Shown: one piece after another, positions 11,140 to 32,973 of the stretch
Numbering within the stretch: position 1 is the first letter of the stretch
Layout: each line of letters starts with the position of its first letter
From: an uncultured Actinomycetes bacterium
Lineage (GTDB): Bacteria; Actinomycetota; Thermoleophilia; RBG-16-64-13
DNA: 64,000 nucleotides
Direction of reading: 5' to 3'
Assembly: GCA_963706025.1 (NCBI GenBank)
Contig: CAVPLM010000005.1
Coordinates: forward strand, 896,001-960,000
Made by a program: the position numbers and the translations under genes
Notes under the pieces: model-generated
Seen by the model: only the letters and a program-made list of their open reading frames with translations
Database searches by the model: none
Told to the model about the DNA's origin: nothing

Positions 11140-11153
11140 CGAACATTTGTTCG
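11140..11153. promoter_or_regulatory. LexA (SOS) box 1, between -35 and -10 of the dnaE2 promoter
   Basis: CGAACATTTGTTCG fits CGAAC-N4-GTTCG, extends to a 10-bp-arm palindrome (11136-11157), and lies within TTGTTA(11132)-N18-TATAAT(11156). Confidence 0.9.
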
Positions 11154-11173
11154 TATATAATCACGCTCTCAAC

Positions 11174-11187
11174 AGAACGTATGTTCG
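11174..11187. promoter_or_regulatory. LexA (SOS) box 2
   Basis: AGAACGTATGTTCG just downstream of the predicted -10. Confidence 0.85.
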
Positions 11188-11249
11188 AAAAACCGACCAG
11201 ATCTTGATTGGATTCTTTTCATATTTATAAAAATGCAACATCTATTGCA

Positions 11250-14200
11250 ATGACACAGACCGACCCCCCATCCGGCAGCGGTCACGCCGGCGGCCGTCCA
11301 CCCAGCTCGAACGGAGGCCCGGAGGGCATGCCGCTCCAACGGTTCAACGTGCAGGGGATCCCGCCCAGTCACGACTACATCCGGCGGCCCGACACCGACC
11401 CCAAAGATGGCTGGGCCCGCGGACCCGCTGATCCCGGTCCTGCCCCCCGGCCTGGTCCCGTTCTTCAGCCGGGCGAGGCATCCACCCCGGCGGGTGAACG
11501 ATCCACTCCGGCAGACCCCGGCTCTGCCCGATCGGAGGCGCCGGGAGTACCTCCCTACGGCGGCATCCACAAGTTCGGCTACACCCGGCCGCTCAAGAAA
11601 CACGAGCAGCCAGCGGCCGCGGGCGCACCTGGGTCTGGCGCGACGGCCGGCACCGGCATCCCGGCTCACGCCCCGGTCGCCGCCGGCACTCCTGCTCCCG
11701 ACGCCTCCCCCGCTGTTTCGCCCGGCGTCTCTTCCTTCATCCACCTCCACGTGCACTCGAACTTCTCGTTCCTGGACGGCGGCAGCCGGATCGAGGAACT
11801 GGTCGCCCGCGCTGCTGAGTTGGGGCAGTCGGCTCTGGCCCTCACCGACCACGACGGCCTCTACGGCGCAGTCCGCTTCGCTAAAGCCTGCGCCAAGCGG
11901 GGCATCAAGCCCATCTTCGGGGCCGAGGTACGGGTGGAGTCGCTGCTCGCCGACAGCGGCCCCGAGGGAACAGTCGCGGCGCCGGCCGGCGTGGCAGGTA
12001 GCACCGCAGGCGCCGCGGCCGTGCCACATTCGCGCCCCGTCGACTCAGGCGCCGCCCCCGACGATCCTCACCATCTCGTGCTCCTCGCCGAGACCCGCGA
12101 GGGTTATGCCAACCTGTGCCGCCTCCTTTCCGCCGCCCATCTGGCCGATCCCGAACGCCAGCGCCCACCCGTCGTGACCCTCGAGTCGCTACGCGCTCAC
12201 ACCCACGGACTCATCTGCCTCACTGCCTGCCGTCACGGCGAGGTGGGCTACCTGGTCGACGCCGGCCGCCACGCCGACGCCCTCCACGCGCTCCTCCGCC
12301 TGCGCGAGATCTTCGGGCCCGATAACCTTTACGTAGAGCTTCAGTACTTCGGCTACGAACCTCACCAAGAGGCCCATGCCGGCCAGCACGGCTCTCCCGT
12401 GTATCAGAAGATCCCTGCCCACGGCGGCCGTCTCCGACATCGCCCCGCCGGCGATCATTGCACCAACTCGTCCGACCATCCGACGCCCAAGCCCTCGCCT
12501 CCGCCCTCCCTTCCGCCTCCCGCTCCTGGTTCAGGCCGAACGCATTCCTCAGTGCTTACCTCACCATTCCCTCTCGGTGCTACCACTGCCACCGAGTCCC
12601 ATTTTCTCCCTCTGCGCTATGATTGCATTGCAACCATAGTTGCAGAATGGCGGCCCTCTTTGCCTCCTAAATCTGTGGAAAACTCCTCGCGCCTCCCCCC
12701 GCTCGACCTCCGCCCCGATCTCCCTAAGGGCCACCCACAACGCCTCAATCCCTCGGACTATGATGTAGGGTTTCACCGAAACGGCCACCCCTGGCGTCTC
12801 TCCTGCCCCACCTACTGCCTCCACCTCACCCACCTCGCCCGCGCCTGCCACCTCCCCACCGTTCTCACCACAAACGCCCATTACGCAGGTGAATACGATC
12901 GCGCCGTCCATTTGATCTGTCGCGCCGCCGGCCACGATCAGCCTCTATCCAGCTACCCAGAGCCGATTCCCGGTTACAGGTGTTTAAAATCTTTATTCTC
13001 GCTTGAGACTTTAGTATCACCATTACTGAAGTTTCTCGATTTCTCTACTGAAGTAAGACCGGCCGCCGACGATTGCGCGGGAGTGCATATAGAACTAAAT
13101 GCAGAGACTATTGCGTATACGGAGGGCGGGCAAGAGGCCGGCACGCCCCCACCTTTAGCCGCAGCGATGTCCAGCGCAACTCCCGTGGGTCCCCTGGCAG
13201 CCCCCGCGCTCATCGCGCAGCGGTGCAACGTCGACCTCGAGCTGGGCGTCTTCCACTTCCCCAAGGTCGACGTCCCCGAGGGTGAGACCGCCTACTCGCT
13301 GCTCGCCAAGCGTTGCTTCCGAGGCATCGCCCGCCGCTACAGGCCGGTGCCCCCACGAGCCGTCGAGCTGCTCGAGAAGGAGCTCCGCATGATCCAGCAG
13401 ATGGACTTCGCCCACTACTTCCTGGTGGTGCACGATATAGTCAGGTGGGCCCACGCCAAGGGCGTGGCATGCAGCGGCCGGGGTAGCGCCGGCAACTCCA
13501 TCGTCTGCCACGCGCTCGACATCACCGCCTCCGAGCCCATCCGCCACAATCTGCTGTTCGAGCGCTTCCTCAATCCCAACCGCCGCGAGATGCCCGATAT
13601 CGACGTGGACTTCTGTTCCTCGCGCCGCGACGAGGTGATCGAGCACATCTACCAGACTTTCGGATCCGAGAACGTGGCCGTCGTGGCCAACGTCAACACC
13701 ATGTCGCCCCGCTCGGCGGTCCGTATCGTGGCCGAGGCCCTGGGCTTCGCCCCCACCGAGATCAACGCCCTGGCCAAGCACGTGCCCCGGCACGGGGACG
13801 CCGCCCGCATCCGCGAGTATCTGGCCGGCGCCTGGCCCGAACTGCGCGATTCGCCGCTGCAAGACGGCGCCCACCCTTCGCCGCTGCAGGACGGTGCTCC
13901 GCCGCAAGGCGCCCACGCCGTCGCCCCGGGGCAAGTTGGGGGGCGAAGCGCCCCGCCAGGCGCCCCGTCGCAGGGCGCTGCCCCGGGGCGCCCCGGCGGC
14001 CGCTACGCACGCTTCCTCGATCTGGTCGAGCGTCTCGACTCCTTTCCCCTGCACCTGGGCACTCACCTGGGGGGCTTCGTCATCGCCGACAGACCGATCT
14101 CTTTTTACGCCCCCCTCCAATGGGCCGCCAAAGGCGTCGTGGTCACCCAGTTCAACAAGGACGACGTCGCCGCCCTGGGCCTGGTCAAGATGGACATCCT

Positions 14201-16256
14201 CGGCCTTCGCACCCACTCGGCCGTCTCCGAGACCGTCCACCTCGTCCGGCAGCGCACCGGGCGCCGCATCCGTCCCTACGACCTCCCTCCCGACGACCCC
14301 GCCGCCTACGAGATCATCAGCAACGGGGGATCCATCGGGCTCTTCCAACTGGAGTCGGCCGGACAGCGCAACCTCGCCTCCCGCCTGCAAGAACGGGATT
14401 TCGACGACGTCATCGCCGCCATCGCCCTCTACCGTCCCGGTCCGCTGGAGGCCGAGATGATCGGGCCCTTCATCGACCGGCGCTGGGGTCTGGAGCCGGT
14501 CCGTCTCCCCCACCCCGCCATGGCCGAGGCGGTGGCCGACACCTACGGGGTCATCCTCTACCAGGAGCAGGTGCTCCGCATCGCCCAGTCGGTGGCCGGG
14601 TTCGACCTGGCCGACGCCGACTCCCTCCGCCGGGCCATGACCCGCGACCGCAGCCGGGAGGAGATGGCCAAGATCGGCGAGACCTTCATCGCCCGCGCCG
14701 TCTCCCGGGGAGTGCCGGAGGAGTCCGCCCGCGAAGTCTTCCGCCAGCTGGAGGGCTTCGCCGCCTACGGGTTCAACAAGAGCCACTCGGTGTGCTTCGC
14801 CGTCATCAGCTACGCGACGGCGTGGCTCAAGGCCTACTACCCGGCCGAGTTCCTGTGCGCCGTCCTCAACAACCAGCCCATGGGCTTCTACACCCCGCGC
14901 ACGGTGCTGAACGACGCCCGCCGCTTCGGGTTGGAGGTCCGGCCGCTGGATATCAACCTGTCGGGGCGTGGTTTCACGGTGGAGGATGAGATACCGCCTG
15001 ATGTGTGGGGCACCGGGGGTGAGTCAGACCTTCCGGGCGCGGGCGATGGGGCGACAAGTGACCCCGTGGGGGCCGTGAGAAACGTGGCGGCCACGCCTGC
15101 CGCCGGGGCGCCCGCCCCCTACGACCCCTTCGCTCAGGCCTGGACCGCCGAGCACGACTGGGGCCTCACCGAGGCCGATCTGGCCGAGCTACAGGCCGAG
15201 CAGGAAGGCGAGCAGGCCTATGCCGAGGCCCTGCGGGCGGCGCAGACACAGGTCGATGACTCTCACACGGCCGCGAACCTACATACGCCGGCTAAGGACA
15301 CCCGGTCTTCGGGGGCAAATCCTGGGGCCGTTTCGACCGGCAGCGCCGCCAACGGGGCGGCCAGTCCGGCACCAGGCGGTGAGCCGCCCCTGGACGGAGG
15401 CGTGGAGCCGGGCTCCTGCCTCGCCCCCAGTTGCGGCATCGCCCCGGATGCCGGCCGGGCCCTGCGGGTGGGGTTCTCCTACCTCAAGCAGATGGGCGAT
15501 CGCTCCCTGCACCGCATCGAGCAGGAACGCCGCCACGGCCCCTTTACATCCTTCGAGGACTTCTACCTCCGCACCCGCATCGACTACCCGGTGGCCGAAA
15601 ACCTCGTCCGGGTGGGCGCCTTCGACTCCCTGGAGCCCGACCGCACCGAACTGCTCTGGAGACTGCCTCTGCTGCACGATCGCCTGGAGGCGCTGGCCGG
15701 GTCGTCCGGAGGGAGGCGCGGCCAACTGCGGGCGTTCTTCTCCCCGCCCAGCCGCGCCGGCCTGGAGAGACACTGGAGCCTGGAGGACAAGGTCCGCTCC
15801 GAGCTCGAGCTCCTGGGGCTCACCGTGAGCTGCCATCCCTTGAAGCTCTACGAGGAGGAGCTCCGCCGGATGAGGGTGCGCATGAGCTACGAGCTCCCCG
15901 CCCTGGGAGACGAGGTGCCGGTCGTGGTGGCCGGAGTCTACGAGCGGGCCCAGAACCCCTGGATGCGCTCGGGGAAAAGGACCATGTTCCTCACCCTAGA
16001 GGACGCCTACGGCCTCTTCGAGTGCGTCTGCTTCGAGTCGAAGCTCGCCAAGATCGCTCCGGTGGTGGCCCGGGCCGGCTACTTCCTGGTCCGGGGCCGC
16101 CTGCAGAACAACCACAAGCGGGGCCTGGCCATCGTGGCCGAGGAGGTGCTGGATCTGGAGGAGGTCCTGGCGAGGAGGAGGGGCAAGCGGGCGCCGGCGC
16201 CGGAGGTTATTGCGCCGGGGGCGGGGACTACCGCGATACCGAAGAAGGTGGGGTGA
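11250..16256 (+). CDS. dnaE2: Error-prone DNA polymerase III alpha (DnaE2 type) with large insertions; start uncertain (11250 or 11328)
   Basis: PHP motifs HLHVHSNFSFLDG and ALTDHDGLYG; GRGSAGNSIVC, PDIDVDF, THLGGFVI, QFNKDD..VKMDILGL, YGFNKSHS, LNNQPMGFY; C-terminal OB fold; SOS boxes upstream. Confidence 0.9.
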   Translation: MTQTDPPSGSGHAGGRPPSSNGGPEGMPLQRFNVQGIPPSHDYIRRPDTDPKDGWARGPADPGPAPRPGPVLQPGEASTPAGERSTPADPGSARSEAPGVPPYGGIHKFGYTRPLKKHEQPAAAGAPGSGATAGTGIPAHAPVAAGTPAPDASPAVSPGVSSFIHLHVHSNFSFLDGGSRIEELVARAAELGQSALALTDHDGLYGAVRFAKACAKRGIKPIFGAEVRVESLLADSGPEGTVAAPAGVAGSTAGAAAVPHSRPVDSGAAPDDPHHLVLLAETREGYANLCRLLSAAHLADPERQRPPVVTLESLRAHTHGLICLTACRHGEVGYLVDAGRHADALHALLRLREIFGPDNLYVELQYFGYEPHQEAHAGQHGSPVYQKIPAHGGRLRHRPAGDHCTNSSDHPTPKPSPPPSLPPPAPGSGRTHSSVLTSPFPLGATTATESHFLPLRYDCIATIVAEWRPSLPPKSVENSSRLPPLDLRPDLPKGHPQRLNPSDYDVGFHRNGHPWRLSCPTYCLHLTHLARACHLPTVLTTNAHYAGEYDRAVHLICRAAGHDQPLSSYPEPIPGYRCLKSLFSLETLVSPLLKFLDFSTEVRPAADDCAGVHIELNAETIAYTEGGQEAGTPPPLAAAMSSATPVGPLAAPALIAQRCNVDLELGVFHFPKVDVPEGETAYSLLAKRCFRGIARRYRPVPPRAVELLEKELRMIQQMDFAHYFLVVHDIVRWAHAKGVACSGRGSAGNSIVCHALDITASEPIRHNLLFERFLNPNRREMPDIDVDFCSSRRDEVIEHIYQTFGSENVAVVANVNTMSPRSAVRIVAEALGFAPTEINALAKHVPRHGDAARIREYLAGAWPELRDSPLQDGAHPSPLQDGAPPQGAHAVAPGQVGGRSAPPGAPSQGAAPGRPGGRYARFLDLVERLDSFPLHLGTHLGGFVIADRPISFYAPLQWAAKGVVVTQFNKDDVAALGLVKMDILGLRTHSAVSETVHLVRQRTGRRIRPYDLPPDDPAAYEIISNGGSIGLFQLESAGQRNLASRLQERDFDDVIAAIALYRPGPLEAEMIGPFIDRRWGLEPVRLPHPAMAEAVADTYGVILYQEQVLRIAQSVAGFDLADADSLRRAMTRDRSREEMAKIGETFIARAVSRGVPEESAREVFRQLEGFAAYGFNKSHSVCFAVISYATAWLKAYYPAEFLCAVLNNQPMGFYTPRTVLNDARRFGLEVRPLDINLSGRGFTVEDEIPPDVWGTGGESDLPGAGDGATSDPVGAVRNVAATPAAGAPAPYDPFAQAWTAEHDWGLTEADLAELQAEQEGEQAYAEALRAAQTQVDDSHTAANLHTPAKDTRSSGANPGAVSTGSAANGAASPAPGGEPPLDGGVEPGSCLAPSCGIAPDAGRALRVGFSYLKQMGDRSLHRIEQERRHGPFTSFEDFYLRTRIDYPVAENLVRVGAFDSLEPDRTELLWRLPLLHDRLEALAGSSGGRRGQLRAFFSPPSRAGLERHWSLEDKVRSELELLGLTVSCHPLKLYEEELRRMRVRMSYELPALGDEVPVVVAGVYERAQNPWMRSGKRTMFLTLEDAYGLFECVCFESKLAKIAPVVARAGYFLVRGRLQNNHKRGLAIVAEEVLDLEEVLARRRGKRAPAPEVIAPGAGTTAIPKKVG
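13850..13897 (+). repeat. In-frame 27-bp tandem duplication within dnaE2 (SPLQDGAHP/SPLQDGAPP)
   Basis: ttcgccgctgcaagacggcgc recurs as ttcgccgctgcaggacggtgc 27 bp later. Confidence 0.85.
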
Positions 16257-16317
16257 GAGCCCAGAACGGTCGGAACCAATCGTCCCCGCAACCCTGGGGT
16301 GAATCGCGTCCCCTCGC

Positions 16318-17367
16318 CTAGCGATCACCCTCAGTGCCGATGAGCAAGTGCATCACGATGTGGACTAAGACGTCCTTTTCCTCGGGACGGCTCTCGGCCA
16401 TCATGAGGGTCAGAGCGACCAACGCGGCGTCTGACACGCGTGGAATAGCGTCGGGTCCGGCCAAGACGCCGTTTCGCTCCAGGAACCACAAGAAGAGGGC
16501 GGCGGCTATCCGCTTGTTGCCATCGACAAAGGGGTGGTCCTTGACGAGGAAGTAGAGCAGGTTTGCAGCCTTCTCTTCGAGACTCGGGTACAAGTCCTGG
16601 CTCCCAAAGGTCTGAACGACCGCGTTCAATGCGCCCCGAAGCGCCTCCCCTCTCTCCACGCCGAACAATCCCGAACCACCAAATCGAGAGCGTAGCCGAC
16701 CCACAACCTGTAGAGCATCACTGTGAGTGAGGACGTAGCGCACCTCGCGGACAGAGGTGGGCTTGGTGATGCGCTGATGATCGTAGTCGTCCAGGAGGCC
16801 GAAAGCGCGGTTGTACTCGCCAACGATCGCTAAGAGAGCCTGTGCCTCATCTCCGCCAAGGTCGACCCGGACAGAGGTGTCGGCGATCAGGCGCACCGTT
16901 TGGTTGAGGTCGCGCAGTCTCTTTTGGTTCAGCGTGTAGCCCCGTACGATATGGTCGCGGATGACCCCCGTAGCCCAGATGCGAAACTGTGTGCCCCGCT
17001 TTGAATTCACCCGGTAGCCGATGGAGATGATGGCATCGAGAGCGTAGAAAGCGACAGGCCGATCAGCACCAGCAATGTGCATTTTTTGCACATTGCCTTC
17101 CCGCTCCAGCTCACCTGATGCAAACACGTTGTTCAGGTGCTTGGTAATCACACTGCGCTCGGTGCCAAAAAGCTCTGACATCTGCTTCTGCGTCAGCCAG
17201 ATGTTCTCGCGCTCCAGACGAACGTCCAGAGTGACCGTCCCGTCGGGGGCGACGTAGAGTACTACTTCGCCGGCAGGCGTCCCCTTGGAGATAGCCTCGG
17301 GCTGGAGGGACGCAGCCTCTCCGATGCCTGCCGTATCTGCCCGCTCCGTCGTCCTGTCATCACCCAT
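16318..17367 (-). CDS. RhuM-family DNA-binding domain fused to Fic/Doc domain
   Basis: IWLTQKQMSELF, ITKHLNNVF..GEL, IISIGYRVNSKRGTQFRIWAT; Fic motif HPFVDGNKRIA. Confidence 0.9.
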   Translation of the reverse strand: MGDDRTTERADTAGIGEAASLQPEAISKGTPAGEVVLYVAPDGTVTLDVRLERENIWLTQKQMSELFGTERSVITKHLNNVFASGELEREGNVQKMHIAGADRPVAFYALDAIISIGYRVNSKRGTQFRIWATGVIRDHIVRGYTLNQKRLRDLNQTVRLIADTSVRVDLGGDEAQALLAIVGEYNRAFGLLDDYDHQRITKPTSVREVRYVLTHSDALQVVGRLRSRFGGSGLFGVERGEALRGALNAVVQTFGSQDLYPSLEEKAANLLYFLVKDHPFVDGNKRIAAALFLWFLERNGVLAGPDAIPRVSDAALVALTLMMAESRPEEKDVLVHIVMHLLIGTEGDR

Positions 17368-17549
17368 GGCTCTCCCCCGTTCGGTGTCCCCCGCGAAGAC
17401 GTCCGCCTCCCGATAATGCCAACTCCGACAATGCCAACTCTATAAGGGTAGCGCATGAGTCGGACGCTTCCGAACCATCATCGCAAACCGCCACGTGATG
17501 AGCATCGGACCGAAGGTGGAGATTGGCCCACAGCCTCCGCCACGGCCCC

Positions 17550-17825
17550 GGTGCTGGCCAGGAGGCGGGGGAAGCGGGCGCCGGCGCCGGCCGGGGGCGA
17601 CGGGCGATCGAGAACCGGACACCCGGAAGCCGTGCAACCGGCCAACAACCGTGAGGCACGAGTTAGTCAGAAACCCGCAGCCCCGGCGGGAGATGCCGCA
17701 GATTCCGGACGCCGTCGAGCTGCGCAGACGCCGGGAAGAGGAGACCTACGGGGAAGGCTCGGCCTCAGCCAAGAAGCGGCCGCCCGGGCGCAGGGACGAG
17801 GGCCATTCCAAGAAAGGTGGGGTGA
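17550..17825 (+). pseudogene. dnaE2 3'-end copy 2 (C-terminal tail only)
   Basis: Begins ggtgctggccaggaggcgggggaagcgggcgccggcgccgg (cf. 16163-16203) and ends ..ggtggggtga like 16256; its middle aligns to 21708-21923. Confidence 0.85.
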
Positions 17826-17870
17826 AGACTCAGGTCTTGCCCCGGAGGAGGTGAACACCGCGCTCCGTCG

Positions 17871-18242
17871 CTAGCCGCCGATGGGAAGCCGCCGAATCCT
17901 GATCCTTGAATGCTCAAAGACCACGACACTCCCTTGGGCAAGTTCCTCCGCGATCGAATCTAGATTGTTGAGAAGAAGAGCAAGCTGAGCTTCGGGGCGC
18001 CTGTTGATTCCACGCCTAAGAAGGATGACCGAAGGTTTCGGTCGGCCTAACAAGGCGAGCAGCGTGCCGAAATCAGTGTCTGCCGAAACCAGGATCCTGT
18101 CTTCTTTCTCGGCAAAGGCGAACACCTCATTGTCGCTCGCCGACTGCATACCAAAGTCGCGCACGTGAACGGAGTCATGTCCGACCAGGCTCAGACCGAC
18201 AGCGACACGAGACGAAATCGCGTTGTCCACGAGGAACTTCAG
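17871..18242 (-). CDS. DUF5615 PIN-like toxin (apparent CTG start)
   Basis: (L)[38 protein letters not shown]. Confidence 0.85.
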
Positions 18243-18469
18243 GAAGCCACCCGAAGCGGGAGTTCTCTCTCACGAACGCTCTCGGCCGCATAGTGAAGCG
18301 CCTGTTCAATGTCCTCGGGCTCCAAATCAGGGTAGCCATCGATGATCTCGCCGGTCGTCATACCTTCGGCCACCATATCGACCACTGTGGCCACAGGAAT
18401 CCGAAGTCCGCGTATGCAGGGCACCCCTCCCATTTGCTCGGGATCGGTGGTTATGCGTTCGAACCTCAT
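18239..18469 (-). CDS. DUF433 antitoxin
   Basis: [39 protein letters not shown]. Confidence 0.92.
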
Positions 18470-18754
18470 CGAATGTCCACCTCCACGCATCCATGCCGAA
18501 ACTCGCTCGCTAGCCAACAGTATAGCCTGGCCCGTGAACCTCCTACCGATCGGCTCGCCACCAGCCGACTGGCAGAACGGCACCGAGTTTCGAGTACACG
18601 TCTAGGTACATCTTGGCATCGGCGCCGCGCTTGACCCTCAATTCATATGGAATGAGTACTTTGCCACGAGACCCCGGCTTGTTAGTCCGACCAAAGATGG
18701 AGCTTGGCGGATTGGACCTGACCTTGCAGCCCGATGCCCACCTAATCCCGATTG

Positions 18755-21268
18755 TCATCCCACCTCATACCCCATGGCTCGATAGCCTCGCAGCCGACGC
18801 TCGTGCATGCGGGCCAGAACCGGCACGTCAAGGTCGGCATAGTCGTAGATCAGCACCTCCGTCTTGCCTTCATCCAGACGGTGGAGACGTCCGGCGTACT
18901 GCACCAGAGTCCCCCGCCAGGAGATGGGCAGAGCAAGAAACAGGGTGTCCAGGCGGGGGTCATCGAAGCCCTCGCCCAAGTAGCGGCCGGTGGCAACCAG
19001 TACGCGCTCCTCACTCGAGGGAATGTCCACCAGCCGTGCAGCGATCTCCCGGCGACGCTTCGCTCCCATGCCCCCATGCAGCGCGATCACGTTGGTCACG
19101 TGCGGCTGGAGCGCCGCGACCAGGACCTGCAGATGCTCCCGGCGTTCGGTCAACACAACAGGGGATCGTCCGCTTCTGACCGCAGCGACCACGTCTTCCA
19201 CCATGAGACTGTTCCGACCATCGTCGGCCGCCAGCGCCGAATACAGCTCCTGGATGCCCGGGACGGCAGTCGCGGGCGCAGTGCCTGGACCCGGCTGAGG
19301 ATGAGTGAATCCGGTGCGCCGTACGATCACTCGATGCCCAAAGGGTCTCTCTTCCGCCTGCTTTCGAGGATCGACCTGGAAACGGATGGGACCGCACTGC
19401 ATGAAGAGAATGGGATGGTGGCCGTCCTTTCGCGTCGGCGTCGCGGAGAGCCCGAGCACGTAGCGCGCGTGAGCGGTCTTCGCCACTTGCTCGAACGTCC
19501 CGGCCGGTACATGGTGGCATTCATCCACGATCAGTTGCCCGTAGCCTGCCACCAACTCGTCCACCTGGCCCCGACGGCCCAGGCTCTGAAGCAGGGCCAC
19601 GTCGATCACTCCCCCGGGCCTGCGCTTGCCGGCCCCGATCTGACCGATCTGGTTGGGATCTATGCCGAGGAACGCCGCCAGCCGTGCTTTCCACTGGTCC
19701 AGTAGCTGCTGACGGTGCACCAACACCAGCGTGTTTACCTTGCGCGCCGCGATCATGTGCGCGGCGACCACCGTCTTGCCGAACGCAGTTCCCGCCGACA
19801 GAACCCCGGTGTCGTGTGCCAGCATGGTCTCTGCGGCTTCTTCCTGATCGGGACGAAGCCTGCCCTGAAACTCGACGTCGATCGATCGGCCCTGAAAACG
19901 TTCGTCCGTCAGATCCAGGTGTACGCCTAACTCGGTCAGCAGCCCCTCCAGCTCCGCAAGGCAACCGCGAGGAAGAGCGATATGCTTGGGGAAATCCTCG
20001 GCGCACCCGATGACGCGAGCATGCCCGAACACAGGCAGGTGCATGGCCTGCGCACGGTAGAACTCGGGATTCTGGAAGGCACCCAGACGGATGATCCGAT
20101 TTCTTAGGGCCGGCGATAGGTGCTCTTTGGGGATGTAGACTTGATTCGCAAGCACGACCGTCAATGATTGGGGCAGGTCGGCAAGAAGCCCCGCCTTTCC
20201 CACTCCCGGGATGCGGGCGGAGACCCTCGACAGCCGCCAGGGCTCATCCGGCCACTCCTCCTCCGGCACGACTCGCACCCCCATGATCTGGTCCCGAGCC
20301 TCGGCCTCGGCAATCAAGGCCTCTAGCCGCTCGTGTGGCACCCGTTCGCACGAAGACAGGTAGGCGAACTGATCGTCATGGGGGACGAGACGGTCGTTGA
20401 GGAAGACCGTATTCCCCTGATCCCGCGCCCGCCGTTGGAGAGGCAGGGCTATGAGGTTCCCGAAGCCACCCAGAGGCAGAGTGTCTTGGCTCGGGAACAG
20501 GCGGTCGTACGAAGCCAGACCGATTTCCGGACGCGACTCCATGGCCCGGGTCAGGAGCAACGATCCCAGCTTTCGCGCCGACGCCGCAGGAGCGGGCTCT
20601 GCAAGGAAGACCCACAGGTGAGCGCCATTCCCGGAGCGGGACCGTTCCAGGGCGCCCGATATCCCCAACTCGCGACAGGTGGCGAGCAGAGCCGCGGCGT
20701 CGTCCTGCCAGTCCGCGCCATCAAGATCGATGGCCACGAGCCAGCAGGTCTCATCAGGCAGGAGTGGATAGATACCCACGACGAACTCGCGGTCGACGCT
20801 GCTCTCCAGACAACCACGCAGATGATCGTGGAGAACTTCGGGAGTAAGCGGCAAGAAATCACGATTAGGGCACGCGGCGCAACGGGTGCGGCGCTTGTCG
20901 CACAGGCCTCTCACCCATTCGCTGCTGCACGCGGGCTGGAAACCCGAACGGTCGGAGCGTTGATTCTCCCAGCGGCGGGCATACACGTCGGTTCGTCCGC
21001 GAAAGAGGCCGGCAAAGAGGGCGACCTTCTCCGCGGCGGACGAGTGACGCGTTACAGGTCCAGGGCGCGAGAGGCTGCGCAGGGGCGCCGGAGGTGAGGC
21101 TCCGGAAGCGGTGCCGATCTCGCGAGGTGAAACTGCCCGGTCGAGGTGCGCGTCGGCCCGCAGGTTTCGGGCCCGATCCAGAAGCTCCGCCCGCTCGCGT
21201 TCAAGAGCGGTTACACGTGCCTCGATGGCCGCCAGTTCGGCGGCTTTGTCCAGGGAGGAATTGTTCAT
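18755..21268 (-). CDS. TOTE-type AEP primase domain fused to SF2 DEAD/DEAH helicase
   Basis: LFRGRTDVYARRW, GIYPLL, AIDLD, ERSRSGNGAHLW, GNLIALPLQ; helicase GTAFGKT, DECHH, GLSATP, GEGFDDPRLDTL, QYAGRLHR. Confidence 0.88.
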   Translation of the reverse strand: MNNSSLDKAAELAAIEARVTALERERAELLDRARNLRADAHLDRAVSPREIGTASGASPPAPLRSLSRPGPVTRHSSAAEKVALFAGLFRGRTDVYARRWENQRSDRSGFQPACSSEWVRGLCDKRRTRCAACPNRDFLPLTPEVLHDHLRGCLESSVDREFVVGIYPLLPDETCWLVAIDLDGADWQDDAAALLATCRELGISGALERSRSGNGAHLWVFLAEPAPAASARKLGSLLLTRAMESRPEIGLASYDRLFPSQDTLPLGGFGNLIALPLQRRARDQGNTVFLNDRLVPHDDQFAYLSSCERVPHERLEALIAEAEARDQIMGVRVVPEEEWPDEPWRLSRVSARIPGVGKAGLLADLPQSLTVVLANQVYIPKEHLSPALRNRIIRLGAFQNPEFYRAQAMHLPVFGHARVIGCAEDFPKHIALPRGCLAELEGLLTELGVHLDLTDERFQGRSIDVEFQGRLRPDQEEAAETMLAHDTGVLSAGTAFGKTVVAAHMIAARKVNTLVLVHRQQLLDQWKARLAAFLGIDPNQIGQIGAGKRRPGGVIDVALLQSLGRRGQVDELVAGYGQLIVDECHHVPAGTFEQVAKTAHARYVLGLSATPTRKDGHHPILFMQCGPIRFQVDPRKQAEERPFGHRVIVRRTGFTHPQPGPGTAPATAVPGIQELYSALAADDGRNSLMVEDVVAAVRSGRSPVVLTERREHLQVLVAALQPHVTNVIALHGGMGAKRRREIAARLVDIPSSEERVLVATGRYLGEGFDDPRLDTLFLALPISWRGTLVQYAGRLHRLDEGKTEVLIYDYADLDVPVLARMHERRLRGYRAMGYEVG

Positions 21269-21294
21269 TGACGCGCACGATAGCGCATGAGCGG

Positions 21295-21923
21295 GCAGAT
21301 GGGCGACCGCTCCCTGGGCCACATCGAGAAGGAACGCCGCCGCATGGGGGTGCGCATGAGCGACGAGCTTCCCGCCCTGGGAGACGAGGTGCCGGTCGTG
21401 GTAGCCGGCGTCTACGAGCGGGCCCAGAACCCCTGGATGCGTTCGGGCAAAAAGGACGATGTTCCTGACCCTGGAGGACGCCTACGGCCTCTACGAGTGC
21501 GTGTGCTTTGAAAGCAAGCTGCCCCAGATCGCCCCGGTGGTGGCCCGAGCGAGCTACTTCCTGGTCCGCGGCCGCCTGCAGAACAACCACAAGCGGGGAC
21601 TGGCCATCGTAGCCGAAGAGGTGCTCGACCTGGAGGAGGTACTGGCGAGAAGACGGGCGAAACAGACACCGACGGTGACGGCCACCGCGGCCACAACTGC
21701 GGCGCGCGGCGACGGCCGATCGAGAGCCGGATACGCGGAAGCCGGACGAGCGGGGCGGGTCGCGCTGAACAAGAAGAGCCCCGGCCGGAAGATGCCGCCG
21801 ATCCCTGAGGCCGTCGACCTGCGTGGACGCCGGGAAGAGGAGACCTACGGGGAAAGCTCGGCCTCAGCCAAGAAGCGGCCGCCGGGGGCGGGAACGACCG
21901 CTATTCCGAAGAAGGTGGGATGA
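21295..21923 (+). pseudogene. dnaE2 3'-end copy 3 (internally deleted, long C-terminal tail)
   Basis: 21295-21341 aligns to 15488-15534, jumps to about 15864, then follows the OB-fold region to PGAGTTAIPKKVG*; one extra A near 21452. Confidence 0.92.
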
Positions 21924-22108
21924 GACAGGAAACAATCACAATAACTGAGACCTTCGATCAGCCCCGAAACACATACTGCTGGTGCCACTCCAGGAACTCA
22001 CCCTTCGGCCGCCGCCTGGCCGGCGACGACTACCCGGACAGTGTATCGGGTACCTCCATTCGCGGGATATGCTCGGGATAGCGGCGTCGCACGAAGGGAG
22101 CGTGGTCC

Positions 22109-23023
22109 ATGAGTCCTGAAGACACTTCCCAGGTCTTTATGATCGGCTCCTCGGACAGAGACGCGGCCGTCAGGAGCCTGTTTGAGAAAGCAGGCTTGGG
22201 CGATCTTTCCGGCAAGAGTGTGGCCCTCAAGGCCAACTTCAACAGCGCCGATCTCTTTCCGGCCTCCACCCACCCGGACACTCTCCGGGCCATAGTCACG
22301 CTGCTCAGGGAGGCCGGAGCGCGTGAGATCACCCTAGCCGAAAGAAGCGGCATGGGAGATACGCGCGAAGTCTTGGAGAGACTGGGGATCTTCGCCCTCT
22401 CTGAGCAGTTGGGCTTCAAGGTCGTCGTCCTGAACGACGAGCCCGCGGAGAGGTGGGCTCACATCGAGCGCGGCGGCACCCATTGGCTCCGGGGCTTCTA
22501 CCTGGCAAAGGTGGTCCTCCAGTCGGACATCGTGATCCAGACGTGCTGCCTCAAGACGCACAGGTTCGGGGGGCATTTCACGATGTCGCTGAAGAACTCG
22601 GTCGGCCTGGTGGCCAAGAAGGTCCCTGGAGGTCACTACGACTACATGTACGAGCTGCACGGCTCTCCATTCCAGCGGCTCATGATCGCTGAGGTCAACA
22701 AGTTCTACGCGGTGGATTTCGTGGTCATGGACGCGGCGAAGGCGTTCGTCAGCGGGGGGCCGGACAAAGGAGCAGGGGTTGAGCCGGGCCTGATGCTGGC
22801 CGGCAAGGACAGAGTGGCCCTCGATGCCGCGGGAGTGGCGATCCTCAGAGAGTTCGGGGCCTCGAGTTTGATGAAGAAGCCCGTCTTCGAGCTGGACCAG
22901 ATACGCAGGGCGGCAGAGCTGGGAGTGGGAACCGGGTCCGCATCGGCCATGGAGCTGGTGCCGCTGGACGAACAGAGTCGGGGAGCGGCCGACAGAATCC
23001 GAGCCATCCTCACGACGGAGTAG
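22109..23023 (+). CDS. DUF362 domain protein
   Basis: VALKANFNSAD..STHPDTL, CLKTHRFGGHFTMSLKNSVG, DRVALDA. Confidence 0.9.
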   Translation: MSPEDTSQVFMIGSSDRDAAVRSLFEKAGLGDLSGKSVALKANFNSADLFPASTHPDTLRAIVTLLREAGAREITLAERSGMGDTREVLERLGIFALSEQLGFKVVVLNDEPAERWAHIERGGTHWLRGFYLAKVVLQSDIVIQTCCLKTHRFGGHFTMSLKNSVGLVAKKVPGGHYDYMYELHGSPFQRLMIAEVNKFYAVDFVVMDAAKAFVSGGPDKGAGVEPGLMLAGKDRVALDAAGVAILREFGASSLMKKPVFELDQIRRAAELGVGTGSASAMELVPLDEQSRGAADRIRAILTTE

Positions 23024-23496: not shown

Positions 23497-23727
23497 ATGT
23501 TCGAGGAGGCAGGTGTGTCGGTGGTCTTCAGGATCGAGCTCGAGCAGGAGACCGATGGGCGCTGGATCGCTGAGGTGGTCGAGCTCCCCGGGGTCTTGGC
23601 CTACGGCGCGACACAGGACGAAGCCATCGCGCACGTGCAGGCATTAGCCCTGCGTGTCGTCGCCGATCGTCTCGAGAACGATGAGGCCGGCAGCGAGCTT
23701 CTGAACATCTCATTCCTCGCTGCGTGA
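23497..23727 (+). CDS. hicB: HicB-family antitoxin
   Basis: IELEQETDGRWIAEVVELPGVLAYGATQDEA. Confidence 0.88.
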   Translation: MFEEAGVSVVFRIELEQETDGRWIAEVVELPGVLAYGATQDEAIAHVQALALRVVADRLENDEAGSELLNISFLAA

Positions 23728-23936
23728 CCGACTGGCCGAGCACTCAGGCCAAGACCGTTCTGGCCGCCCTTCTCCGCATCGGCTGGGAGGTCGAACGTCA
23801 GTCGGGTTCCCACCGGGTCCTTGCGAGACCAGGCTGGCCGCACTTGGTGTTCGCCTTCCACGACCGTGACGAGATCGGACCACGCATGCTCGCCCGCATC
23901 GCAAAGCACAGCGGATTGCGCCCGCAGGACCTGTGA
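23724..23936 (+). CDS. hicA: HicA-family toxin
   Basis: LLRIGWEVERQSGSHRVL..FAFHD.DEIGPRMLARI; GTGA overlap with hicB. Confidence 0.9.
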   Translation: MTDWPSTQAKTVLAALLRIGWEVERQSGSHRVLARPGWPHLVFAFHDRDEIGPRMLARIAKHSGLRPQDL

Positions 23937-23947
23937 ACGAGAGCAGG

Positions 23948-24439
23948 CTAGCCGGCTTTGGTCCCTCCCCCGCCGCCGTATTTCCGCATCTGCTCGCAGA
24001 CATAGCTCTCGGGGATGGGCTCCCCCACCATAGCCAGGAACATTGGAGCGGAAGTCGTTCCCAGGAACCGGAAACGTCGGGTCATGTCCGCAGTCTTGGC
24101 CTCGAAGTCGCCGAGCGAGCTCAGGTATCCGCCGAACCCGCCCGCGGTCTTGTCCAGTTCCAGCAGCATGGCGGCGTTGTCGGCGATGGCCTCGATCTTC
24201 TTGCGGTTCCTGATCACCCGAGGGTCGGCCGCAAGCCGGTCGATGTCGTCGGGAGTGAGCCGCGCGACCTTCTCGACATCGAAACCGCCGAAGGCCTCCT
24301 TGATCCCCGGCCATTTCGCGTCTACGACCTTCCAGTTGATCCCCGAGGTGAATATCACCTTGCTCATGCTCTCGAGGTAGCCGGCCAAGGACTGCGGCTT
24401 GTCGCCACGCGGATCGTGCATCCCGTCTTCCTTTCCCAC
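23948..24439 (-). CDS. DNA-3-methyladenine glycosylase I (Tag)-like protein
   Basis: IFTSGINWKVVDAKW..AFGGFD, VIRNRKKIEAIADNA, FRFLG. Confidence 0.8.
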   Translation of the reverse strand: MGKEDGMHDPRGDKPQSLAGYLESMSKVIFTSGINWKVVDAKWPGIKEAFGGFDVEKVARLTPDDIDRLAADPRVIRNRKKIEAIADNAAMLLELDKTAGGFGGYLSSLGDFEAKTADMTRRFRFLGTTSAPMFLAMVGEPIPESYVCEQMRKYGGGGGTKAG

Positions 24440-24767
24440 GTATGCCTTGCCGAGTGATGTACCCCGGGGCAGCCCAAACCACGCGCCCGGCGCCCGGCGC
24501 CGGTAACTGAGGCCTAGGGCAAATGCGTCGTGCGGGTTACGGCAAGGCCCAGTACAACCAAAGCCGGACGGAAGGGAGAATGATGTGCCGCACTGCCGGT
24601 GTCAGAGTCACCCCCGCGGCAGTTCACCGCGAGGCCCCAGATCGCAAGATCTCGCTCGGGCAAACCGGCGATCGCACACCCCGTGCCGCTAGGGTAGCCG
24701 ACTGCCCAACTCGAGGCTACAATCGGCCTGTACGACTCCACCGAGAAGCCGGAGAGGAGCCACCCGG

Positions 24768-25085
24768 ATGCCCGTCAACCTCTCTATCAAGAACGTGCCC
24801 GACGAGGTCGCCCGCGGACTCCGCAACCGCGCGGCCTTGAATCAACGCTCGCTTCAGGAGGAACTGCTGGAGATACTGAAGCAGGCGGCCAAAGACCAGG
24901 GTCCGGTCACGATCGACGACCTGTTGACGACCGCCCAGCGGAAGAAGCAGGCTCTCGACGAGGCGGCCGCCAAGGTTCGCGCGGCCCAGGACGCAGAGCA
25001 CGAGAGAATGGCCCGGCGCTTCGAGGACCTCGTGGCCGAACCCGATGACGCTCACCCGGGCGGACGATCCGGCGGGGAGATCTAG
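24768..25085 (+). CDS. Arc/FitA-like ribbon-helix-helix protein, no adjacent toxin
   Basis: NLSIKNVPDEV..LRNRAALNQRSLQEEL; TACAAT at 24718. Confidence 0.8.
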   Translation: MPVNLSIKNVPDEVARGLRNRAALNQRSLQEELLEILKQAAKDQGPVTIDDLLTTAQRKKQALDEAAAKVRAAQDAEHERMARRFEDLVAEPDDAHPGGRSGGEI

Positions 25086-25152
25086 TCGCCCGGCGGCTCC
25101 TCGGCCAAGACGATCGGTGGCCGACTCTCGCTCCGCGGAGTCTTGCGGTCGC
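25016..25152 (+). repeat. 137-bp direct repeat, copy 1
   Basis: Matches 27740-27876 with 4 mismatches by eye. Confidence 0.95.
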
Positions 25153-25232: not shown

Positions 25233-25287
25233 CATGAATAGTACAATCAGCGCTGTTAACCAGGAGTCTCCGGGAAGGAGCGGTCAA

Positions 25288-25596
25288 ATGGCCAAAGAGA
25301 TCATCCTCTACAACCTCGCGCCGGGCGTGACCGACGAGCAGTTCAAGGAATACGTGGACACCGAGAAGGGCCCCTACATCGACGGTCTTCCTTCGGTGAA
25401 GAGATATGAGCTGGTCAGGATCGACAGCAGTCGTTCGGGCGTGGTGCCCTTCAGGTACTGCGGGATCGTGCACCTCAACAGCCTGGAAGACTTCCTGAAC
25501 ATCGACACCAAGACCGAGGAATACAAGGCCTTCTCCGCCAAGATGGCGAGCATGACCTCGGAGATCCACGTGACTTTCGGGGAGGAGATCCACTAG
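25288..25596 (+). CDS. Small EthD/REDY-like dimeric alpha-beta barrel protein, copy A
   Basis: MAKEIILYNLAPGVTDEQFKEYV..LPSVKRYE; AAGGAG RBS; paralog at 32665. Confidence 0.7.
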   Translation: MAKEIILYNLAPGVTDEQFKEYVDTEKGPYIDGLPSVKRYELVRIDSSRSGVVPFRYCGIVHLNSLEDFLNIDTKTEEYKAFSAKMASMTSEIHVTFGEEIH

Positions 25597-27739: not shown

Positions 27740-27876
27740 GCGCTCCGAGGATCTCGTGGCCGAACCCGATAACGCTCACCCGGGCGGACGATCCGGCGGG
27801 GAGATCTAGTCGCCCGGCGGCTCCTCGGCCAAGACGATCGGTGGCCGACTCTCGCTCCGTGGAGTCTTGCGGTCGC
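27740..27876 (+). repeat. 137-bp direct repeat, copy 2
   Basis: Matches 25016-25152. Confidence 0.95.
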
Positions 27877-32213: not shown

Positions 32214-32664
32214 GACGGCCGCCTGACTGCTGGTGTTGTTATTATACCAACAGTTCTGTGTGACGCAAGAGACGCCCTGGGATTCGGACGTTCTGCCGCA
32301 TCGACTGCTGGTGAGTATCGATCAAGGAAGTAACCCCCGTCGACGAGGATGGTCGCCGGCACTGTTCACCCCCGAAGAGACAAACACTCGGGCTCAGCGA
32401 CGCCAGATCACGCGGGACGTCTGCTACCAAGGGGCCAGATAACGTGACTGGCTTGACGTGGCTCGAGCGATGGTCGCGGACTCAGAAGAAAGCCACATCG
32501 GACCAAAGGTCGAGATCGGCGAATTGGCCGGCACCGTGTGAGAGACGCCCGGGTCGATGGCCGGCGGCATCAAGGCTGACCCGACGGCGCCGACGCGCGC
32601 CGAACAGGCGCCGGTAGCAGAATCAGCGCTGTGAAACCAGGAGGTTCCGGAAGGCAGTAGTCAG

Positions 32665-32973
32665 GTGGCCAAAGAGATCATCCTCTACAACCTGGCGCCG
32701 CACGTGACCGACGAGGAATTCAAGGAGTACGTCGACACGGAGAAGGGCCCGTATATCGACGGTCTCCCCTCGGTGGAGAAATATGAGCTGGTCAGGATCG
32801 ATGACAGCCGCTCGGGCGTGATCCCCTTCAGGTACGTCGGGATCGTGCACCTCAAGAGCTTGGAGGATTTCAAGAACAAGGACACTCAGACCGAGGAATA
32901 CAGGGCCTTAACAGCCAAGATGGCTGGCTTGACCTCAGAGATCCACGTGACTTTCGGGGAGGAGATTCACTAG
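32665..32973 (+). CDS. Small EthD/REDY-like protein, copy B
   Basis: Same length as and highly similar to 25288-25596. Confidence 0.7.
   Translation: MAKEIILYNLAPHVTDEEFKEYVDTEKGPYIDGLPSVEKYELVRIDDSRSGVIPFRYVGIVHLKSLEDFKNKDTQTEEYRALTAKMAGLTSEIHVTFGEEIH

Follow-up and report, generated by a model that had tools for sequence, protein, structure and literature searches.

A putative sequential-displacement array of gene ends and mixed cargo anchored on a DnaE2-like polymerase gene of an uncultured actinobacterium

Polymorphic toxin loci already provide examples of gene ends being displaced step by step with no integrase involved. For the Rhs 'C-terminal displacement' arrays, an integrase-free model of homologous recombination with circular intermediates has been put forward (Jackson et al. 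2009, PMC2935791), and the accessible parts of that paper describe an intact gene and, behind it on the same strand, a series of 3′ fragments that retain variable lengths of the conserved region, come from the same clade as the gene and have other genes between them. For the effector–immunity modules of type VI secretion (T6SS) in Vibrio cholerae, the available text attributes sequential displacement to homology-facilitated illegitimate recombination (Kirchberger et al. 2017, PMC5361080), with a conserved upstream homology anchor, a non-homologous distal join, older genes and 3′ remnants shifted downstream, and no integrase. Here we analyse 64,000 nucleotides (nt) of DNA from an uncultured Actinomycetes bacterium (GCA_963706025.1, contig CAVPLM010000005.1, positions 896,001–960,000, forward strand; hereafter the window), in which an intact DnaE-family polymerase gene is followed by further copies of its own 3′ end with other genes between them (Table 1). 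We suggest, with a probability of roughly 60%, that serial homology-anchored insertion built this locus as a sequential-displacement array, with an SOS-regulated, DnaE2-like polymerase gene as its anchor.

The architecture is not confined to the window. With the C-terminal 283 aa of the polymerase as query we collected 47 loci (L numbers) from 43 assemblies of uncultured Actinomycetota, metagenome-assembled genomes of Thermoleophilia/Gaiellales type that are species-level representatives (at most about 95% identical) and whose flanks are visible for up to 10 kb. An intact gene, same-strand 3′ fragments and genes between them are found in the window and in CAWJDT (L001 and L036), L005, L019 and JAOSKU (fragment in L038, full gene in L045). 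What is displaced differs from both precedents. In the accessible account of Rhs arrays, displacement affects hypervariable toxin domains at the tips, which come with cognate immunity genes, and selection acts on the novelty of these tips (PMC2935791). The displaced ends here are instead the most conserved part of the polymerase, its HHH, OB and tail regions, and not variable tips with partner immunity genes; the cargo (Fic, toxin–antitoxin, primase–helicase and other proteins) has no relation to the polymerase. The V. cholerae anchor, as far as the available text goes, lies within the T6SS cluster and the retained immunity genes are under selection (PMC5361080), whereas here a predicted SOS-regulated polymerase serves as anchor, and dead gene ends with mixed cargo are what has been kept. 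An earlier note on this DNA had known of no description of such an arrangement. The two papers, so far as their accessible parts show, have already published this architecture together with a model that needs no integrase, and stepwise displacement is not new; what appears to be new is a polymerase gene as anchor together with functionally unrelated, largely defence and toxin–antitoxin cargo. A full-text literature search, mostly without subscription journals and hence not proof of absence, returned nothing relevant on a polymerase gene as island, integration site or defence hotspot. With this locus, a process so far described for polymorphic toxins would be extended to an ordinary conserved gene, and to an actinobacterial clade (Thermoleophilia/Gaiellales-like) that has received little study.

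Repeat analysis, Pfam and PADLOC bore out the array as it had first been described, running from the gene through a RhuM–Fic gene, a second copy of the 3′ end, a DUF5615/DUF433 pair and a TOTE primase–helicase gene to a third copy. All three copies finish with the same conserved terminal peptide and stop codon, and their mutual similarity ceases 2 nt past the stop. The cargo genes converge on these ends, with stop-to-stop spacers of 61 nt after the gene and 45 nt after copy 2, exactly as had been reported. Copy 3 matches the gene at 21295–21341 (89% to 15488–15534), at 21325–21652 (88.7% to 15851–16177, over 328 nt) and at its end, 21880–21925 (89% to 16213–16258). It carries a 333-nt in-frame deletion relative to gene positions 15535–15850, bordered by two similar short motifs, a 1-nt frameshifting indel in an A run near 21452, and a C-terminal tail about 192 nt (about 64 aa) longer than that of the gene. 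Copy 2 matches the gene over 17550–17590 (90% to 16163–16203) and copy 3 over 17588–17825 (76% to 21700–21923, over 239 nt); it has the same long tail, with its reading spread over three frames, and is therefore decayed.

Table 1 Features of the array and its borders (positions in the window)
Feature	Position	Strand	Basis or remark
Two tandem LexA (Cheo-type) boxes, CGAACATTTGTTCG and GAACGTATGTTCG	11140–11187	.	Exact GAAC-N4-GTTC, short gap 5′ of the polymerase gene
DnaE-family polymerase gene, intact, DnaE2-like	ORF 11208–16256	+	Pfam: PHP, pol3 alpha, finger, HHH_6, OB
Copy 1, 3′ part of the intact gene, recurring downstream	15488–16256	+	Self-comparison
Cargo 1, RhuM–Fic/DOC protein	16318–17367	−	Pfam Virulence_RhuM 1.9e-19, Fic 1.1e-12
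Copy 2, displaced decayed 3′ end, 276 nt	17550–17825	+	Starts 94 nt before the gene-end equivalent; long-tail allele
Cargo 2a, DUF5615, PIN-like putative toxin	17871–18230	−	Pfam 5.7e-25
Cargo 2b, DUF433, putative antitoxin	18239–18583	−	Pfam 3.5e-24
Cargo 2c, AEP-TOTE primase fused to SF2 helicase	18755–21322	−	Pfam AEP-TOTE 3.1e-89, ResIII, Helicase_C
Copy 3, displaced 3′ end, 629 nt	21295–21923	+	Starts 769 nt before the gene-end equivalent; long tail
DUF362 gene, first beyond the array	22109–23023	+	Pfam 9.8e-42

Gene and copy 3 differ at 54 positions, 35 of which fall at codon position 3, and the differing codons divide into 34 synonymous and 15 non-synonymous. Most of the divergence thus arose under purifying selection, and the copies in the window are therefore different alleles and not an assembly echo, the conclusion already drawn in the earlier note. 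The window and many of the relatives are metagenome bins, the array is read from assembled sequence, and two bins each hold two full-length polymerase genes on separate contigs (L002/L008 and L026/L030), which may be paralogues or mixed populations. Even so, an artefact in the form of a strain chimera or repeat echo is extremely improbable: the copies are 10–24% diverged, decayed and cut at internal positions abutting unique cargo, a strain chimera would switch inside the homology and not join the end of a cargo gene to mid-gene, and the same design occurs in independent assemblies, including a single contig of 4.6 Mb.

The alleles also bear on where the copies came from. The tail allele of copy 3 differs from that of the gene and is common in relatives, and in a tree of the OB region (312 nt) copy 3 falls beside L003/L002, apart from the polymerase gene of the window, at weak resolution (SH-aLRT 93/88). 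Both observations speak against segmental duplication of the gene end in situ, after which the copies would have diverged, undergone gene conversion and received separate insertions between them, as do the mostly synonymous differences of copy 3 and the cargo, which differs from unit to unit and would still require insertion events. Duplication in situ draws its support from the deletion and frameshift of copy 3, which are typical of decay in place, and from fragments 2/3 of L001, fragment 3 of L005 and the JAOSKU fragment, which are 97–100% identical to the gene of their own genome; on balance we consider it very unlikely. Copy 2 was also considered as a crossover hybrid, its first 41 nt being gene-like (90%) and the remainder like copy 3. 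This was rejected, since copy 2 can be aligned without a break over its whole length to the long-tail allele of L016 and can therefore be one ordinary long-tail allele. In a mosaic test of the window's gene against relatives the best match shifted by segment, but relatives at most about 95% identical are too distant for a breakpoint to be placed.

Extra polymerase 3′ fragments occur in 4 of the 43 related assemblies, with differing copy numbers and cargo. CAWJDT has at least five remnants: four whose starts precede the gene end by 1929, 734, 733 and about 388 nt, and a further one made up of the gene's last 24 nt plus 210 nt of downstream flank. L005 has three, starting 360, 2146 and 2058 nt before the gene end, the biggest measuring 2.1 kb; L019 has a single 94-nt piece that starts 171 nt before it; and JAOSKU has a fragment of about 660 nt, separated from the full gene by about 42 kb on the assumption that its 4.6-Mb contig forms a circle. 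One copy was seen in each of the other 39 assemblies within the visible flank of up to 10 kb, a weak match in L003 (55% over 30 aa) being left out of the count, and synteny downstream of the polymerase gene is poor. The comparison of relatives that the earlier note had called for thus found a locus that is not invariant. Over the window and the relatives, the distance from a fragment's left end to the gene end varies between 24 and 2146 nt, with scattered values of which only those of CAWJDT fragments 3 and 4 coincide. Across their HHH/OB/tail region the displaced ends are 85–99% like the gene overall, and for some fragments identity with the resident gene reaches 99–100% along hundreds of bases, a sign of recent events or of gene conversion that is still going on.

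In the three multi-unit arrays (window 16318–21322, L001+L036 and L005), 20 of 22 non-fragment open reading frames (ORFs) are convergent with the polymerase gene according to the ORF tables, as are all four cargo genes of the window. At single-copy loci, downstream genes lie on both strands. When each locus is compared with itself, no other dispersed direct repeats come close to the polymerase fragments in prominence, a ranking that has no fair null because the loci are centred on this gene. Array cargo in the relatives includes toxin–antitoxin pairs, AbiEii, OLD-type TOPRIM and HigB-like proteins, and also an amidase, CBM96 and unknown proteins; the genes around the JAOSKU fragment are metabolic. 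The earlier description of the site as one of defence and toxin–antitoxin accretion therefore fits part of the cargo, in which such genes are indeed present, but not the amidase, CBM96 and metabolic genes. A drop in identity within fragment 4 of L005 (93%, then 81%) was examined as a crossover and rejected, the low stretch being a hypervariable low-complexity insert after which identity returns to 95–97%. Stand-alone C-terminal homologues number 84 proteins of 155–496 aa, about 20 of them on contigs longer than 45 kb; they were not used as a count, as orphan fragments among them are inseparable from genes split by frameshifts or contig ends. Annotations present displaced fragments as separate 'OB-fold' or 'pol III alpha' proteins, so that they may be taken for genes.

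We propose that foreign DNA carrying the conserved 3′ part of the polymerase gene, together with the donor's downstream genes, would recombine homologously inside the resident gene. The left crossover could fall anywhere within the gene, and the far end would be joined non-homologously, either by homology-facilitated illegitimate recombination of a linear piece or by a single crossover of a circle, two routes that give the same picture and are inseparable here. The incoming 3′ end would complete the polymerase gene, which would stay intact, and whatever lies between the join point and the stop of the resident 3′ end would be shifted downstream as a dead fragment with the imported cargo in between. 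Repetition of the event would give the order gene, cargo, fragment, cargo, fragment. A join beyond the gene end would leave no visible trace, which would explain the many single-copy loci. The last ~770 nt of the gene are the best-conserved DNA between these species (89–93%, against 75–80% at the 5′ end) and would therefore make a good homology anchor. Because the fragments are direct repeats, later homologous recombination could delete, swap or excise units, and such repeats predict circles, deletions, recA dependence and strain-level variation in the number of units. Ready-made units may later spread by homologous recombination, which would fit the boundary shared by CAWJDT fragments 3 and 4.

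Several observations weigh against serial homology-anchored insertion. The repeat around cargo 1, between the gene and copy 2, is just 41 nt long (19 nt exact), which is short for RecA. CAWJDT fragments 3 and 4 share not only their left boundary but also about 470 nt of upstream flank at 80% identity, so some junctions were inherited as units and are not independent illegitimate joins. Repeated uptake by recombination, as the earlier note had it, agrees with the anatomy of the array and its recurrence, from which we infer the route and its direction; any link to the SOS response is likewise putative. The relatives allow comparison at the species level only and within short flanks, the process may not be specific to this polymerase gene, and a recombinase could act in trans from elsewhere in the genome.

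The last point leads to site-specific integration. Tandem integrative elements at the 3′ ends of tRNA, tmRNA or protein genes, including cis-mobilisable remnants and tycheposons, depend on tyrosine or serine recombinases and have a fixed att core and short duplications. The units described here resemble them in being bounded by a partial copy of the target 3′ end, with repeated events pushing older ends outward, and the array could consist of decayed or cis-mobilisable elements that target the polymerase 3′ end, bring a replacement 3′ end in attP and have lost their integrase or use one in trans, in the manner of tandem accretion at tRNA genes. Direct repeats of the target 3′ end around each unit are the classic signature of such elements, the short cargo 1 repeat agrees with them, and the best point in their favour is the pair of CAWJDT fragments with identical boundary and related flank. 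Unlike the known elements, however, the fragments are up to 2.1 kb long, and their boundaries occupy at least 10 different positions scattered over more than 2 kb; together with the lack of any recombinase that could be assigned to the arrays, this disfavours a single att site and agrees with the core fragments 'of variable length' of the Rhs study (PMC2935791).

The search for such an enzyme gave little. No recombinase or transposase domain was found in any of the 57 domain-scanned ORFs of the window (22 + 35), in agreement with the earlier note, and the non-coding stretches of the window array are too limited to house the pseudogene of an integrase. The scan of relatives took in 318 downstream ORFs, namely all 84 called in the seven array loci and, from the 420 ORFs of the other 40 loci, the 234 of at least 170 aa (the remaining 186 being shorter); 77 of the 234, without a match at E 1e-12, were scanned again at E 1e-4. 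Tyrosine recombinases were absent from these 318 ORFs, and a serine recombinase appeared once: a large protein of 473 aa (L033:11934–13352, minus strand) encoded 1 kb past the polymerase stop, a position that might favour integrative elements. L033 shows no displaced fragment up to the contig end, 5 kb further on, and homology of its polymerase gene with that of L035 runs to the stop, for which reasons we rejected it as an intact element. A new recombinase was also sought as a recurring protein, and this too was rejected: all-against-all clustering of 513 downstream ORFs produced no unknown family common to the arrays, and two ORFs of about 324 aa in L005 are unrelated at E 1e-10. With no tyrosine and one unrelated serine recombinase among the scanned ORFs, a known integrative element, which the earlier note had held up against its own proposal, did not apply, and we regard site-specific elements as an unlikely alternative. 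Insertion sequences (IS) are present in three assemblies, IS21 in CAWJDT and IS110 with IS3 in L006 and L021. The IS21 element (IstB and IstA; L001:19963–20727, L036:8021–9370) lies between two CAWJDT fragments and adjoins the right-truncated end of fragment 3.

The anchor polymerase likely starts at ATG 11328, which has GGAGG upstream, or at ATG 11250; the database entry of the protein itself has 1642 aa. Its OB fold occupies aa 1572–1648 of the 1682-aa ORF and the protein ends 34 aa past this fold, so that it has no tau-binding domain. DnaE2/ImuC polymerases lack the C-terminal tau-binding domain and terminate shortly after the OB fold. DnaE1-model alignments of the nearest relatives outside the clade end near model position 1063 of 1146. 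The polymerase scored 796.6 bits on the NCBIfam DnaE2 model NF004225, below the cutoff of 939 for formal membership, and 805 bits on the DnaE1 model NF004226, under the cutoff there too; its alignment to the DnaE2 model is broken up by long inserts. Clade relatives P0004 and P0044 reached 797–798 bits on the DnaE2 model, and the two models give nearly equal scores to members of the window clade and to their closest relatives outside it. For calibration, true DnaE1 proteins reached 1395–1476 bits on the DnaE1 model, and the 13 matches above its cutoff scored 1356–1476 bits on that model and, where listed, 694–766 on the DnaE2 model. From scores far under those of true DnaE1 proteins, the LexA-type boxes and the missing tau-binding domain, we conclude that the polymerase is not the replicative DnaE1 but a DnaE2-like, SOS-regulated enzyme below the NCBIfam DnaE2 cutoff. 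The earlier label 'dnaE2' thus stands as far as the SOS boxes and the distinction from DnaE1 are concerned, and is too strong for a score of 797 against 939.

The partner genes of DnaE2, imuA and imuB, are often found nearby but may sit elsewhere in Actinobacteria; none of the 57 scanned window ORFs contains a Y-family or ImuA-like domain. Long Pro/Gly/Ala/Ser-rich low-complexity segments interrupt the polymerase at 11208–11740, 12345–13200 and 14988–15455, corresponding to the N-terminal ~170 aa, aa 380–665 and aa 1261–1416. The inserts are a clade trait, as the lengths of the relatives run from 1400 to 1750 aa. A strong negative GC skew lies within the gene at about 12250–13000.

SOS control of the polymerase gene, a prediction made in silico from the tandem LexA-type boxes conserved upstream of it, is well supported, and the earlier note's view of the anchor as SOS-controlled holds. 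Exact GAAC-N4-GTTC occurs three times in the 64-kb window, and two of the matches make up the tandem pair in front of the gene. Of the 41 sequences that contain the polymerase PHP start (40 loci and the window), 39 show one or more LexA-type boxes in the 900 nt upstream of it, and in 31 there are two or more; the tandem boxes stand about 32–34 nt apart in the same place across L001–L045. No exact LexA-type box was found in L017 or L030.

That SOS induction triggers the building of the arrays is speculation, and it forms part of a more far-reaching idea. The repeated polymerase 3′ ends might serve as the recombination sites of an integrase-free cassette system, in which RecA would excise circles of gene end plus cargo and insert them into the same gene of other cells. 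Because RecA and the anchor gene would both be SOS-induced, DNA damage or phage attack could set off a reshuffling of defence cassettes. The locus would then amount to an integron that has no integrase, in a lineage with few site-specific recombinases. We hold this to be a long shot. Integron cassette arrays likewise gain units at a fixed point, from which older units move away, and have promoter-poor cassettes; unlike them, the locus has no intI and no attC, its repeats are pieces of a coding gene, and the window yielded no Rfam or recombinase match.

Integrase-free defence hotspots between core genes have been reported in Escherichia coli (PMC10121019) and Pseudomonas aeruginosa (PMC10250203), and small islets transferred by recombination in flanking core genes have been described as well (PMC13617665), in each case according to the accessible parts of the papers. 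Like the present locus, these are variable regions rich in defence or toxin–antitoxin genes beside a conserved gene, without mobility genes; unlike it, they are not reported in the accessible text to hold a stack of partial copies of the gene beside them. Mobility genes are missing from many defence hotspots that adjoin core genes. The stacked gene ends here are a physical record of successive insertions and point to homology-anchored insertion as a route by which such sites may fill.

The cargo genes in the window are largely recognizable. The RhuM–Fic protein is a full-length match to the PADLOC candidate system PDC-S23 (E 1.5e-119, residues 33–342 against profile positions 5–323 of 327). 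Within the 180-nt gap between the start of its gene and copy 2, two direct copies of a ~13-nt motif are followed by a TATAAG-like box (17405–17450), which may be the operator and promoter of the gene. The DUF5615/DUF433 pair is also present in L026, L018 and L004. The primase–helicase gene probably starts at ATG 21268, 27 nt from copy 3, rather than at 21322, because N-terminal alignment with its L023 and L025 homologues begins at residue 19. TOTE conflict systems are defined, in the accessible part of the source, by TPR, OB, TBP and Effector components (PMC12458937); no TPR–OB/CSD or TBP genes lie beside the primase–helicase gene, whose neighbours are the DUF433/DUF5615 pair and copy 3, so that on this definition it does not form such a system. 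No tRNA and no Rfam match was found in the window, and a promoter scan gave no useful result.

In nine of the loci (L003, L004, L007, L012, L025, L029, L040, L042 and L047) a Schlafen group 3-type helicase is encoded within 10 kb downstream of the polymerase gene and may be a semi-conserved neighbour or a frequent cargo. Beyond the array, the window shares an EthD-sensor-PadR block with L004, L039 and L042, at differing distances from the polymerase gene. In the window this block is bracketed by a 137-nt direct repeat of 97% identity (25016–25152 and 27740–27876), which may be another recombination scar of the same variable region, and the EthD-like gene is duplicated, with copies at 25258–25557 and, 7.4 kb downstream, at 32635–32934 (84% identity). 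On the minus strand at 23948–24439, inside an overlapping ORF (23601–24482), lies a truncated 3-methyladenine glycosylase (Tag) that covers Pfam positions 34–122 of 177.

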